DNA of 64,000 bases from Vulcanimicrobiota bacterium (GCA_027452165.1 DAIDGX010000026.1:13769-77768), one strand, 5' to 3'; counted from the stretch's first letter, positions 10,113 to 20,793 are shown. Notes: generated by a model not told the origin, from the letters alone. Translations and numbers: made by a program.

Positions 10113-13100
10113 ATGGGTCGGCCATTGCAGGTTTTTGGCCTGCTCCTCATGATTATTGGACTGCTTGGGACGATGCTGGTGGAATCCGGCAACCCCGGGC
10201 TGGTTGCTCTTGCCGACCCCTGCGTGCCCGCGGGCACGCCCACCCCGCCGGCCGCGCCTTCAAGGCGCCAGCCTGGCATCGCGACGGCCGCCCCGCAAGC
10301 CACCGGCACGCCCGCCACCGTCATTCCGCCCCGTTCATCCTATTGGCATGCCCACGCCGACGGCGTGGATGGCGCTGGATCTCGCGAAATGGAGGTGGCG
10401 GCTCTGTCCCCACCACTCTTAACACCGCCACCGGTGAGCCCAACCCCCATCCCAACGCCGCCGCGCGCCACGCCCGAACCGCTGCCGCCGGGGAGTTATC
10501 CCGTCTTCGCGCCTACCGAGAACCTCACGACCCCTTCGCCTACCCCAGCTCCCATTCAGACCACGACCCCGGCCCCAACCGCGAGTCCAGGGCTGCCGCC
10601 TTGCCCCTCGCACAAGCACCATCTCTTTGGCGATGGTCCGATCGAGATCTCGGGCTCGGGTGCGCTTGACCTTGGGTCACATCACGTCGCCAACACGACC
10701 TATACGCAGACGCAGGCCCAGACGAGCCTCGCGATGACCTTCTCGGTCACCCGGCGCACCGAGCAGTCCTCGCTCGTTATTTCGCAAGCCCTGGGCGATT
10801 ACAACGGCAATTACAACTCCGGGCAGATCAACGTCGGCTACAGCACGCCGAGCTATCTACTGAATTACGGCACTGTGAACGGCCCGGCTGATACGCAACT
10901 CTCGAGCGGAGCCTTCAACCAGGGCCTTATGCTTGGCATTCCCGTCGGTACCTCGGAGTGGGACCTCATTGGGGCACACACGCAGGGTGTCAACGGCGAA
11001 GGCTATCGCGTTGGAGCGATCCGCCATACGAGCACGACCCGCAAGGGGGCATACGTGTCTCAGACGCTTTACGACGCAATCGGCGATCAATCACACGCGA
11101 ATGCCGCGACCCTCGATCTCTCGTATAGCCTCTTCCATGGGATGAACTCGCAACGTTTCGAGACCGCGATCGATTCGGTACGCCACGTTCCCGGTGTTCC
11201 GGACGGCATGCGACTCGCCTATGCTACGAACCTGAACTTCAGTGGTGGTGCGACCGCGACGAGTATTAGCTACACCCACCTACCCAATGCGTTCGTCGCG
11301 CTTGGGCAGGTGCAGTTCGAGCAGTCGCAACTCCAGATCACACGCCGCAACCCGCTCTTTCACGGTGTCCTCACCTTCGACTTCGGCGATCTGTTCTCGT
11401 CGTATTCGGGCTCCTCGACGCGGACCGAACACGCAGCCTTTAATCTCAACCTCCCGCTCGGGATGCACGCGAGCTCGCAGTGGCTCGTGAATTTCTCCAC
11501 GACAAGCTCCGAAGGTGATGTGGCGCGCGAGCGCGACGTTGCGCTCGCCATGAACGAACAGATACGCGGTTTTACGCTGCAACAGACGGCGCAGGAAAGC
11601 ACCGTGAACGATACGCTCGCCGGTGTAGCGACGCAACGGCAGTTTGCTGCGGCGCTTTCCCACGGACTCTTCGGCGGCTATATCTCGCTCCAGAGCAGCA
11701 TGCTCTCGGGACACAGCGCCGGCGGTACCCAGCAGCTCACGGATTCGGTCGCGCAGTTCACCCGTCAGATCGGGGCAAAGGCGGAAATCTCGCTTTCGGC
11801 CGAGGCGTTGCGAAACGCGATCCTTGGGCCCGGTTCTGCGACGAACCAGTTTACGACCACGGTGAGCCTGTTGCGGCGCTTCTCGCCGGTCGTGGGCTTG
11901 CGTGCAACCTACGGACGCACGCACCAGAGCGGCGTCTTTGGCGGTGCAGCATCCTACCTGAATTTTGATATCGTCGGGCCGCTTGCGATCGGCTCGGCCG
12001 CACGCTACACCGGGCGCGCGAATCCGAACCTTCCAGCGATCATCCAAGGCCATGTGTATCTTGCGACCGAGGCTGCCGGCTACGGTCTCGCCTCGCAACA
12101 GGGCTTCCCGAACGTGCTCGTGACCCTCGATGGCGGCCTAACGGAGCGCACCGACGCAAGCGGCTCCTACGAGTTTCGTTTTGTGAAGCCTGGGGCGCAC
12201 ATCGTCTCGATCTCGACGGGGACGCTGCCAGCCGGCGTCATCGCGGATGCGAGCACGCGCAGTCTCGAGGTGCAGGGTGGCCAGATCGCGACCGTCGATT
12301 TCTCGGCTGGGCAGTTTGCCGCGGTCGGCGGCAGAGTGGACGAGCGTATCGACGGGAAGCTTGTGCCGGTACCGAACGTCTTGCTGCTCGTGGACGGCAA
12401 GCAGCAAGGGTATACGGGCGAGGACGGCACCTACCAGATCGGGCATCTAAGCGGCGGGAGGCACACGATCGCGGTTTCCACCGATTCCCTTCCCGCGACG
12501 CTTGCGGTTGAGGGGACGAGTTCGCACAGCGTGGAGGTCTCAACCGGCAACGTGACGCCGGTCAACTGGGTGCTCGTCGGGCTCGGGTCGATTCGCGGCT
12601 CCGTGCTCTATACCGCGGACGCCGGCTTTGGTGATTTAGTGGGCGCCCCCAACGTCTACGTCGTGGCGCACCCGGGCCAGCATGCTGCCATCACCGATGC
12701 CGACGGCCACTTCATCATCGACAACCTCGCCCCGGGAGCTTATACCCTCACCCTCGACAACGATACGCTGCCGGAAGGGCAGGGGATTATCCAGGGCCCC
12801 GATGGAGAGGTTGATGTGGTGGGCGGCCAAGCGACCGAGGGGGTGACGTTTAAGGTCGGACCGCAGGCAAAAGAAGTCATCATGACCTTTGGTGGCGGGT
12901 CCGAGGCGGCCGTCAGCGCAAGCTTCGAGCCGAGTAAGGCGCCTCCGAACTCCATCGTCGAATTGGTGGTGACGACGAACGAAGCGCATCCGACCTCGGT
13001 TATCGCCCAGTCCGACCTCTTCGGCACGCTGCCGTTGCACTACGTAGCCAAGCGGCACGCATGGATTGCACGGCTCCTGGTTGCCCCCTCGGTCGCCAAT

Positions 13101-13430
13101 GGCGACCACCCGGTCCATGTAGAAGTGAAAGGCGAAAAGAACGGCAGCACCGACACCGCGCTCACCGTGAATAACGCCCTTCCGCTAATCTATGCCCGCG
13201 GTACGCCCGCGCGACCGCTCCCAGGCCAAGAGGTTCGGGTCGTCGCCAGAATTTTCGCTGACGTGCGCGCGGGCGACGAAGTCGTGCTCGAAGATGGCCA
13301 AACCTTCGAGCTCCCGGCCCCCCGTGGGCACATCTTTGCCTTCTCAATCCACGTGCGCCACCCGCTCCCTTACCATGGGCTGATCCTCACCCGGACGGGG
13401 CAAAGGCTGCCATTCGTAATAGGACCGTGA
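10113..13430 (+). CDS. Large secreted/envelope protein: N-terminal hydrophobic anchor, Pro/Thr-rich linker, beta-rich barrel-like region, then three CarboxypepD_reg/Cna-B-like domains. First gene of the secreted locus.
   Basis: 1105 aa. N-terminus MGRPLQVFGLLLMIIGLLGTMLV. About 150 aa of P/T/A-rich linker. About 450 aa with alternating polar/hydrophobic strands (LAMTFSVTRR..., LDLSYSLF..., VLTFDFGDLF...). Three repeats of the DG.Y.F..L.PG.H.I pattern (SGSYEFRFVKPGAHIVSIS, DGTYQIGHLSGGRHTIAVS, DGHFIIDNLAPGAYTLTLD). Confidence 0.7.
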   Translation: MGRPLQVFGLLLMIIGLLGTMLVESGNPGLVALADPCVPAGTPTPPAAPSRRQPGIATAAPQATGTPATVIPPRSSYWHAHADGVDGAGSREMEVAALSPPLLTPPPVSPTPIPTPPRATPEPLPPGSYPVFAPTENLTTPSPTPAPIQTTTPAPTASPGLPPCPSHKHHLFGDGPIEISGSGALDLGSHHVANTTYTQTQAQTSLAMTFSVTRRTEQSSLVISQALGDYNGNYNSGQINVGYSTPSYLLNYGTVNGPADTQLSSGAFNQGLMLGIPVGTSEWDLIGAHTQGVNGEGYRVGAIRHTSTTRKGAYVSQTLYDAIGDQSHANAATLDLSYSLFHGMNSQRFETAIDSVRHVPGVPDGMRLAYATNLNFSGGATATSISYTHLPNAFVALGQVQFEQSQLQITRRNPLFHGVLTFDFGDLFSSYSGSSTRTEHAAFNLNLPLGMHASSQWLVNFSTTSSEGDVARERDVALAMNEQIRGFTLQQTAQESTVNDTLAGVATQRQFAAALSHGLFGGYISLQSSMLSGHSAGGTQQLTDSVAQFTRQIGAKAEISLSAEALRNAILGPGSATNQFTTTVSLLRRFSPVVGLRATYGRTHQSGVFGGAASYLNFDIVGPLAIGSAARYTGRANPNLPAIIQGHVYLATEAAGYGLASQQGFPNVLVTLDGGLTERTDASGSYEFRFVKPGAHIVSISTGTLPAGVIADASTRSLEVQGGQIATVDFSAGQFAAVGGRVDERIDGKLVPVPNVLLLVDGKQQGYTGEDGTYQIGHLSGGRHTIAVSTDSLPATLAVEGTSSHSVEVSTGNVTPVNWVLVGLGSIRGSVLYTADAGFGDLVGAPNVYVVAHPGQHAAITDADGHFIIDNLAPGAYTLTLDNDTLPEGQGIIQGPDGEVDVVGGQATEGVTFKVGPQAKEVIMTFGGGSEAAVSASFEPSKAPPNSIVELVVTTNEAHPTSVIAQSDLFGTLPLHYVAKRHAWIARLLVAPSVANGDHPVHVEVKGEKNGSTDTALTVNNALPLIYARGTPARPLPGQEVRVVARIFADVRAGDEVVLEDGQTFELPAPRGHIFAFSIHVRHPLPYHGLILTRTGQRLPFVIGP

Positions 13431-20062: not shown

Positions 20063-20793
20063 AGAAGCTGCTCTTCGCGTTCGCTCTGGTCGCGCTCGGT
20101 GTCGCGTTCTTCGGAACAGCGCAGGCCTTCCAAGTGCAACTCGGGGTCAAACAAATTTCGGTCAACTTTACCGTTACGCCCTCGCCGATCGCCTATGCGC
20201 CCACGAATGCAACCGGTGTGGCCGTCGCTGCGAACGGCGCTACCTTTGCGTCGTTTGAGAACGTCGCGGACTATTTGGGCAAGGCCGATCCGCTCGCGTC
20301 CATTGTTGCCTACGAACCGATGAACATCGGCGACATGGTCGCTCAGTCGAATCAAGCGGGCGTGAAGGTGCAGTTCACGGTAAAGGTCGATCCGACGTAT
20401 CAGTATTTTCATCTCATCCCGGTGAACACGAATCTAAATGCGGGCTATGGCGCGAACACTTATACGTGCTCGTTTCAGGTGTTCGCAAAATACGCGACGG
20501 CCTGGACGATCACTGATTATGCGTATGGGAGTAGCAGTTCGGGGAATACCCAAGGTCTTGGCGGCTTCCCGCTCTACAACTACGCGACGACGAGTGACCT
20601 TGCGTGGTTAGCAGAGACGATTACGACCTCATATAAGGCCTATGCTAACGCAGGTTCACCGGGTGAAACGGTTTTTGCCGGAGCAGCGGGCAGTTCAAAG
20701 ACCATCTGTATTGACTTAAACCTGTCGGTGCCGGCGTCGATCCCGGCCGGAACCTATACAGCGACGATTAGTTACCGTATGGTTCACAACTAG
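20059..20793 (+). CDS. Secreted small subunit-like protein with the shared module
   Basis: The TTG start overlaps the upstream stop (TTGA). Signal peptide MKKLLFAFALVALGVAFFGTAQA. Motif FQVFAKYATAWTITDY. Ends IPAGTYTATISYRMVHN-stop. Confidence 0.7.
   Translation: MKKLLFAFALVALGVAFFGTAQAFQVQLGVKQISVNFTVTPSPIAYAPTNATGVAVAANGATFASFENVADYLGKADPLASIVAYEPMNIGDMVAQSNQAGVKVQFTVKVDPTYQYFHLIPVNTNLNAGYGANTYTCSFQVFAKYATAWTITDYAYGSSSSGNTQGLGGFPLYNYATTSDLAWLAETITTSYKAYANAGSPGETVFAGAAGSSKTICIDLNLSVPASIPAGTYTATISYRMVHN

Follow-up and report, generated by a model that had tools for sequence, protein, structure and literature searches.

Candidate chaperone-usher-like surface assembly locus in Eremiobacterota combining a WxLIP homologue with a predicted usher-like barrel

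Introduction

What does a bacterium assemble from six adjacent genes whose products all appear to be exported? The question is raised by positions 10113-20793 of a stretch of Vulcanimicrobiota DNA (GCA_027452165.1 DAIDGX010000026.1:13769-77768), referred to here as the window, which was analyzed over its full 64,000 nucleotides (nt) and along which all coordinates are counted. The six open reading frames (ORFs) of the locus are labeled A to F in window order. The locus can be read as encoding a divergent form of chaperone-usher-like pathway by which a diderm member of the Eremiobacterota displays or polymerizes surface proteins, a reading to which we give about an even chance. The locus shares a homologous component with the WxL clusters of Gram-positive bacteria and an architecture with chaperone-usher pili, and it lacks defining features of each. 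A first-pass annotation made from the sequence had noted parallels to both kinds of system and concluded that the locus matched neither. Both parallels are real, and the conclusion was too strong: C is a solid homologue of WxLIP, and a distant member of its family, P0061, passes the Pfam gathering score for PapD_N. "Partly both" is the better description.

Results

A conserved operon of exported proteins

The six genes run in the same direction and encode the following products, with lengths in amino acids (aa) and with immunoglobulin-like abbreviated as Ig-like.

A, 10113-13430, plus strand: ORF of 1105 aa with a leader, a proline-rich linker of ~130 aa, a beta-barrel and five beta-sandwich domains; proposed usher-like pore or platform
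B, 13598-14371, plus strand: ORF of 257 aa; small secreted subunit, paralogue of E
C, 14418-15209, plus strand: ORF of 263 aa; soluble two-domain Ig-like WxLIP homologue, proposed periplasmic chaperone
D, 15279-19385, plus strand: ORF of 1368 aa; giant T/S/N-rich secreted protein, proposed adhesin or large fiber component
E, 19385-20062, plus strand: ORF of 225 aa; small secreted subunit
F, 20059-20793, plus strand: ORF of 244 aa with a TTG start; third and most divergent small secreted subunit

The intergenic gaps are 167, 46 and 69 nt, a TGATG overlap joins the stop of D to the start of E, and TTGA joins the stop of E to the start of F. Alternative starts of B lie at 13523 (GTG) and 13625, and the NCBI call for this gene is 248 aa. 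An N-terminal hydrophobic segment is present in 6/6 products. The leaders of B, C, E and F are short AxA-type signal peptides, and those of A and D consist of a hydrophobic segment followed by a proline-rich stretch of ~100-130 residues. The N-termini of A and D may be cleaved as signal peptides, or they may serve as inner-membrane anchors whose linkers span the periplasm. They resemble each other (window 10113-10600 and 15279-15700; BLAST E = 4e-6 without composition correction), and the proline-rich N-terminus of A has two conserved cysteines, in the motifs ALAxPCVP and PPCPxHRH. No later transmembrane-like segment follows the leader in the six products, save two borderline windows in D.

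Searches of Pfam and NCBIfam detected no enzyme, ATPase, sortase or regulator domain in the six proteins, and a motif scan detected no LPXTG in any of them. The named domains are the CarboxypepD_reg-type repeats of A and a sub-threshold WxLIP_PGBD (DUF916) match in C, and among the six proteins W-x-L is present in A and D only. A promoter and terminator scan of the locus showed no enrichment, and Rfam returned no riboswitch ahead of gene A. The compact co-directional layout with its two overlaps, the leader or anchor on every product, and the lack of these domain classes and of LPXTG had all been read correctly in the first-pass annotation. The locus is a dedicated operon with all products exported, and it most plausibly encodes a surface assembly system.

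Conservation was assessed in a genome scan using one genome per species, which gave 79 loci, and by iterative hidden Markov model (HMM) searches on the locus ORFs; counts refer to 82 loci (L001-L082). Gene co-occurrence in relatives had been named as a check at the outset, and the whole set is found in ~63 of the 82 related loci, which shows that the cluster is not a product of chance. The genes are ordered A-B-C-E-F-D in 31 loci, A-B-C-D-E-F in 10 (the window type) and A-D-(B/E-like)-C-E-F in at least 7, and most of the remaining loci are interrupted by contig ends. The locus is chromosomal, and almost every lineage sampled has it. Nearly all homologues of C belong to Eremiobacterota (Vulcanimicrobiota, WPS-2: Baltobacteraceae, Aquilonibacter). 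The gene set is also present in L013, L062, L076 and L080, whose records are labeled Dormibacterota, Acidiferrales/Acidoferrum or Armatimonadota; these labels could reflect mis-binning or true presence outside the phylum.

Eremiobacterota are diderm. Thin sections of Vulcanimicrobium viewed by transmission electron microscopy (TEM) show an outer membrane covered by lipopolysaccharide (LPS) (PMC9758169), and the genomes of the phylum encode BamA and LPS synthesis (PMC6664022). The host is taken as diderm from this phylum literature rather than from the organism's own envelope, in keeping with the outer-membrane-type envelope that the first-pass annotation had suspected.

C is a soluble homologue of WxLIP

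The C family was compared with the WxLIPs of seven canonical WxL clusters from lactic-acid-bacterial plasmids. Alignment of the C family to these seven proteins by hhalign (97.7%, E = 1.6e-12) extended over 211 columns and covered both DUF916 and DUF3324, with residues 28-246 of C aligned to residues 28-267 of WxLIP. PF06030 (WxLIP_PGBD) is matched by 26 of 30 C-family members, and the best match of the family profile among PDB sequences is EfmWxLIP1 (E = 8e-4); FaeE, a pilus chaperone, is matched at E = 0.1. C ends ahead of the WxLIP transmembrane helix and has no hydrophobic segment between the leader and residue 263, as the first-pass annotation had observed of this DUF916-like protein. Its homologues are accordingly short, at 245-270 aa compared to 320-380 aa for WxLIP. 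On these sequence comparisons, C is a two-domain homologue of Gram-positive WxLIP that lacks the membrane anchor.

The same family was aligned to seven classical chaperones (FimC, FaeE, PefD, MrkB, Caf1M and two others). The match (hhalign, 69%, E = 4.3e-5) covers 194 colinear columns in both domains and pairs VNPREFDIPPNSFQLVR with VTPPLFAMKGKKENTLR. The C strand ERVASKVYLY is aligned to SRIKLYYRP, which places the nearly invariant K154 on the lysine of FimC and FaeE, and LIDFGG of C (family consensus IDYGG) is aligned to the INDYGA of the chaperones, an NDYG-like motif. In PapD-type chaperones the G1-strand lysine holds the C-terminal carboxylate of the subunit. C itself has no Pfam PapD_N or PapD_C match, and P0061, which passes the PapD_N threshold, is related to C with a phmmer E of 1e-19. 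WxLIP and the classical chaperones align poorly with each other (hhalign, 6%), which places the C family between the two.

AlphaFold2 (AF2) predicts that a strand of WxLIP completes the WxL beta-sandwich in parallel (PMC10599100), and the paper that reports this prediction mentions neither chaperones nor ushers. The predicted strand insertion would amount to donor-strand complementation in all but name. A search of a literature library found no paper that makes a mechanistic link between WxL clusters and chaperone-usher systems.

A is predicted to form an outer-membrane barrel

The Pfam matches of A are confined to CarboxypepD_reg, SdrD_B and related domains at approximately residues 650-890. 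Homology searches retrieved 17 relatives, all of one architecture, and loci L001-L082 contain 59 orthologues of A. An AF2 model of residues 165-1105 was built from an 18-sequence alignment (pLDDT 78, pTM 0.46) and defines two regions.

Barrel region of A, 10644-11975, plus strand: residues ~178-621, ~26 long antiparallel strands by DSSP of the AF2 model
C-terminal array of A, 12036-13427, plus strand: ~5 beta-sandwich domains, three CarboxypepD_reg-like and two more, from Pfam and the AF2 model

The block pLDDT of the barrel is mostly 75-90. A Foldseek search of the PDB with the model returned FimD and PapC ushers as all of the top 10 matches (E = 1.2e-17 to 3e-13, ~780 columns), followed by MtrB (9e-8) and by porins and LptD (1e-5 to 1e-6). 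The barrel alone matches the translocation domains of FimD and PapC, MtrB and porins. An even strand count puts both ends of the barrel on the same side of the membrane, which would make the beta-sandwich array periplasmic like the C-terminal domains (CTDs) of ushers. The first-pass statement that no usher was recognizable holds for the sequence and not for the predicted structure, with which the fold search ranks FimD and PapC first. The model supports assignment of A as an outer-membrane barrel with a predicted usher-like architecture. The domain order of A, a barrel followed by an Ig-like/beta-sandwich array, resembles that of inverse autotransporters (intimin/invasin). This class was considered and rejected, with ~26 strands in A compared to 12 and no inverse autotransporter in the best 50 fold matches listed.

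B, E, F and D end in a common strand

B and E are clearly paralogous (hhalign, 99.7%). The match of F and of the D C-terminus to B/E is significant or nearly so over the last 30-35 residues only (hhalign, E = 1e-4 to 1e-3), and the alignment of the D C-terminus to the B family spans the last 35 residues (E = 1e-4, 58%). The proposal that one module is common to the three small proteins and the giant holds for B and E as clear homologues, and for F and D it is reduced to this terminal segment and the order of the motifs. The B, D, E and F families all end in Y-T-[LV]-x-x-[N/K/Q/Y]-COOH across the loci. Column profiles show a strand-like motif at the N-terminus of B and E, G-[ST]-V-x-[VL]-x-W (for example G-S-V-K-L-Q-W), and two other shared elements, [DN]-F-G and V-x-T-N-D-x-x-G-F-x-V. 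The counterpart of the latter in D is W-x-L-x-V, in which W and L are at least 90% conserved.

C-terminal module of D, 18993-19382, plus strand: ~130 aa, from column profiles and the hhalign match to the B family

The elements of this module are, in order, C..C, DFG, W-x-L-x-V and T-Y-T-L-[IV]-x-N-COOH. The motifs of B, D, E and F follow the order seen in WxL domains, nFG ... D-x-R-G-x-x-G-W-x-L ... Y-T-T-T-I-x-W-x-L-x-x-P. The mature small subunits are 200-230 aa, and orthologues of F occur in most loci. D keeps its length of 1300-1500 aa in 51 loci and is T/S/N-rich and low in charge, with a proline-rich N-terminus and conserved cysteine pairs that fit folding outside the cytoplasm. Pfam finds no domain in the D protein of the window, and among 30 orthologues it finds only a weak MG2 match in 4.

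The first-pass view that the small proteins are WxL-like was pursued with profile methods. The Pfam WxL model matched none of B, E, F, D, 51 D C-termini or 72 small-family members, and hhalign comparison of B, E, F and the D C-terminus with 10 WxL domains gave values below 5% that are not significant. When the WxL HMM was run over 4637 locus ORFs, members of the B, D, E and F families made up 22 of the 40 top sub-threshold matches compared to 7% expected. This enrichment is the extent of the signal, and homology to WxL domains is not demonstrable by Pfam or hhalign. In hhalign comparisons of B, E, F and D with eight classical pilins, the signal peptides alone match. By these sequence criteria, there is no statistical support for homology of B, E, F and D to either WxL domains or pilins. 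Nothing was returned from the PDB when its sequences were searched with D or with the profiles of the small family and of A. An exhaustive HMMER search of 1.84 billion representatives with the small-family profile returned 137 clusters, all small proteins, none of which has a pilin or WxL Pfam match. The small family is narrow and is not bridgeable to a known family by profile search.

The AF2 model of B is all-beta (pLDDT 84.8, pTM 0.79). A likeness to GH11 xylanase in the Foldseek search (E = 0.1) was discarded as noise. A sequence search found no solved WxL-domain structure, so the PDB fold search of B lacks that comparison.

P0061 belongs to a possible compact relative of the locus

Among the clear relatives of C, the most distant is P0061, a 294-aa PapD_N protein. 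It is encoded in a metagenomic cluster (L003:2828-8578, GC 0.63) with the gene order small-chaperone-small-944 aa-148 aa-small. The 944-aa protein combines an NPCBM_assoc domain with a middle part that looks like a barrel and an end that is CarboxypepD_reg-like. The cluster resembles the window locus in that the chaperone is flanked by small secreted proteins and by a protein of ~1000 aa with a CarboxypepD_reg-like C-terminus. It differs in its much smaller subunits (168-180 aa) and in having no D-like giant. A further likeness is seen in the visible W-x-L motifs (SWNLNL, EWTLRM) and ...TL..P termini of its three small secreted proteins. No significant hhalign match was obtained between the 944-aa protein and the A family, or between the L003 small proteins and B, E, F or the D C-terminus. 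L003 may represent a further version of this kind of system in a more compact form. P0062, the C relative most remote of all, has too short a context to inform the comparison.

Genomic neighborhood

The syntenic neighbors of the locus across the phylum are genes for flagellin, an MgtE_N/CBS protein, Nramp, PAS-GGDEF, MatE and kynureninase. This synteny indicates that the locus is vertically inherited and is no mobile island. Horizontal acquisition was rejected: the GC content of the locus is slightly lower (0.59-0.63 compared to 0.64-0.66), yet the neighborhood is syntenic phylum-wide. The remainder of the window consists of housekeeping genes.

The flagellin gene at 8598-9830 (minus strand; Flagellin_N, E = 1.9e-31, and Flagellin_C) has a phmmer match (E <= 1e-8) in 68 related loci. 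Flagellin lies on the strand opposite to A in 40 listed matches, mostly ending no more than ~400 bp upstream of A, and one locus differs. This placement is seen with both internal orders, ABCDEF and ABCEFD. The cultured Vulcanimicrobium, reported to be without flagellin, was not among the loci returned by the scan. Flagellin and A may have a common regulatory region at 9831-10112 or may take part in a motile/sessile switch. An M-box (magnesium) riboswitch (RF00380, 8384-8563, minus strand; 123.8 bits, E = 6e-28) sits between the flagellin gene and a gene for a 430-aa MgtE_N/CBS/PRC-barrel protein (7000-8292, minus strand), which is followed by an Nramp transporter gene (5680-6993, minus strand). 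A PAS-GAF-GGDEF cyclase is encoded at 3610-5664 (plus strand) and lies upstream in 28 related loci, and an 887-aa protoglobin-GAF-EAL protein is encoded at a greater distance from the locus (33160-35823, minus strand). Both cyclic-di-GMP signaling proteins could regulate expression of the surface structure. Four long ORFs had no Pfam match at the thresholds used (23117-23962, 37746-39554, 50238-51926 and 53473-54903, all minus strand), and some of them may be spurious ORFs that overlap true opposite-strand genes of this GC-rich genome.

Discussion

A chaperone-usher-like route is the simplest model that uses every part of the locus. The route would start with transport of B, E, F and D across the inner membrane by Sec. 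In the second step, soluble periplasmic C would capture these proteins by inserting a G1-like strand (residues ~140-156, GGGISFSERVASKVYLY) alongside the C-terminal Y-T-L-x-x-N strand of the subunit. The terminal carboxylate would be held by the conserved basic residues K38, R150 and K154 of C, in the manner of PapD-type chaperones, and this anchoring would also parallel the published AF2 prediction for WxLIP and WxL. The C-subunit complexes would then dock on A, with the barrel of A as the exit through the outer membrane. At the surface, the small subunits would either polymerize by swapping the N-terminal strand of B and E (G-S-V-K-L-Q-W) or assemble non-covalently into a complex with D as its adhesive component. 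What the analysis establishes is that C is homologous to WxLIP, that A is predicted to have a barrel followed by beta-sandwich domains, that B, D, E and F end in a common strand, that all products have export leaders and that the genes are co-inherited. The binding mode, transport direction, surface location and any polymerization are inferred.

The diderm envelope of the phylum fits this chaperone-usher-like reading, and so do the parts list and the details of the parts. As in the Fim, Pap, Caf1 and Csu systems, there are subunits, a two-domain Ig-like chaperone, a large barrel with C-terminal beta-sandwiches and a large protein that ends in a subunit-like element, and all of the putative substrates have a conserved C-terminal strand. 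C is colinear with FimC, FaeE and Caf1M, including the G1-strand lysine and the NDYG-like motif, and FimD and PapC are the best structural matches of A.

Several observations weigh against this reading. A has no sequence similarity to ushers in Pfam, in PDB sequence searches or in hhalign comparison with FimD, and the subunit families have no Pfam Fimbrial, SCPU or WxL match, which leaves the locus without an Usher, Fimbrial or SCPU sequence signature. The A model was built from just 18 sequences with a pTM of 0.46, and it aligns to ushers with TM-scores of 0.3-0.4, a low range that a multi-domain model would be expected to give. Its barrel has ~26 strands compared to 24 in ushers, neither a plug insert nor an usher N-terminal domain is evident, the proline-rich linker occupies the place of the latter, and five C-terminal domains replace the two of ushers. 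The link of C to the classical chaperones is moderate and short of conclusive, and C is nearer to WxLIP than to PapD. For the B model, Foldseek gives no significant PDB neighbor and no match to a solved pilin, with CS17 and FimA at a probability of only 0.15-0.2. Donor-strand exchange, polymerization and surface location are putative.

The main rival is that the locus encodes a diderm WxL/Csc complex that does not polymerize. C would stabilize WxL-like domains of B, E, F and D, A would be an anchor or exit rather than a processive usher, and the stoichiometric complex would serve adhesion or polysaccharide binding. We consider this unlikely but worth serious attention. The locus resembles the WxL/Csc clusters of Lactobacillales and Listeria in several respects: C is homologous to WxLIP over both Ig-like domains and aligns more closely with it (97.7%) than with pilus chaperones (69%), and the combination of a WxLIP with several small secreted proteins and a giant that share a C-terminal element, all of them exported, mirrors the canonical cluster. 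The same chaperone-like strand insertion is predicted. The elements nFG ... V.TND..GF.V or W.L.V ... YTxxIx[WYF]x[LV] follow the order of the WxL domain, namely FG, G[WF]x[LV] and a terminal aromatic-x-aliphatic strand, and the B, D, E and F families are enriched among sub-threshold WxL HMM matches (22/40 compared to 7%). However, no WxL match of the small and giant proteins reaches statistical significance with the Pfam model or the hhalign profiles, the Trp of the motif is mostly Phe or Tyr here, and the chains end in Asn compared to ...P. The WxLIP transmembrane helix, the LPXTG partner and the exposed peptidoglycan of a monoderm are all missing from this diderm host. The locus also has three small paralogues compared to one or two, and an extra 1105-aa outer-membrane barrel gene that has no counterpart in Gram-positive clusters and whose usher-like fold favors a translocation step.

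The other rivals are less likely. D, together with B, E and F, could form an S-layer-like or sheath coat with A as its outer-membrane anchor, comparable to Deinococcus SlpA. D is giant, T/S/N-rich and low in charge, as are many S-layer proteins, C has a faint NCBIfam match to a putative S-layer protein, and vertical inheritance of a chromosomal, nearly universal locus suits an envelope component. The SDBC barrel of Deinococcus (8agd_A, E = 1e-5) is also among the fold matches of A, but this match is 12 orders of magnitude weaker than those to ushers. Neither SLH nor any other recognized domain for S-layer anchoring is detected by Pfam, an S-layer goes unmentioned in the published account of the cultured Vulcanimicrobium (PMC9758169), and such a coat is improbable on balance. 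We know of no S-layer locus with a dedicated Ig-like chaperone homologue, which also counts against it. Nutrient capture, in which A would take up nutrients as a channel like SusC or a porin and B, D, E and F would bind glycans at the surface, is scarcely credible: CarboxypepD_reg domains occur in SusC-type transporters too and Csc clusters were reportedly first proposed as carbohydrate-utilization complexes, but Pfam finds no TonB-dependent receptor, plug or TonB-box signature in A, the domain order of A is reversed relative to SusC, the locus has no glycoside hydrolase, regulator or inner-membrane transporter, and the fold search places TonB-dependent receptors (PirA, E ~1e-5) a long way behind ushers. 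SusC-like uptake and sortase pili were rejected for lack of their defining genes, and TasA/camelysin fibers for lack of a Pfam TasA/camelysin match and of a signal peptidase (SipW) gene in or beside the locus.

A bolder form of the chaperone-usher-like reading is that the locus is a living intermediate between Gram-positive WxL/WxLIP clusters and Gram-negative chaperone-usher pili, that WxLIP and PapD belong to one superfamily of donor-strand chaperones, and that the product is a novel class of fiber. We advance this tentatively and hold it to be doubtful. If it is true, Eremiobacterota build a fiber with a WxLIP-type chaperone and an usher-type pore from subunits of a fold absent from the PDB, and Gram-positive WxL clusters are a remnant left after loss of the outer membrane and the usher, with the chaperone tethered to the membrane.

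The B/E, F and D families and the barrel part of A have no Pfam model, and B also stands without a structural neighbor in the PDB. Whether WxLIP serves to bind peptidoglycan or the host is a matter of debate. The occurrence of a soluble WxLIP homologue beside an usher-like barrel in a diderm, aligning with FimC and FaeE, supports a role as a strand-complementation chaperone. The locus suggests that machinery of the chaperone-usher type is older and more widespread across phyla than usher HMMs reveal, and it hints at relatedness of two surface systems that have been thought separate. Soils, peat and polar deserts harbor Eremiobacterota in abundance, and hardly any have been cultured. The library search found no description of chaperone-usher systems in this phylum, and to our knowledge the type IV pilus is its sole described surface appendage. 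An export locus of ~10.7 kb that is vertically inherited throughout the phylum would be a leading factor in how Eremiobacterota cells attach.

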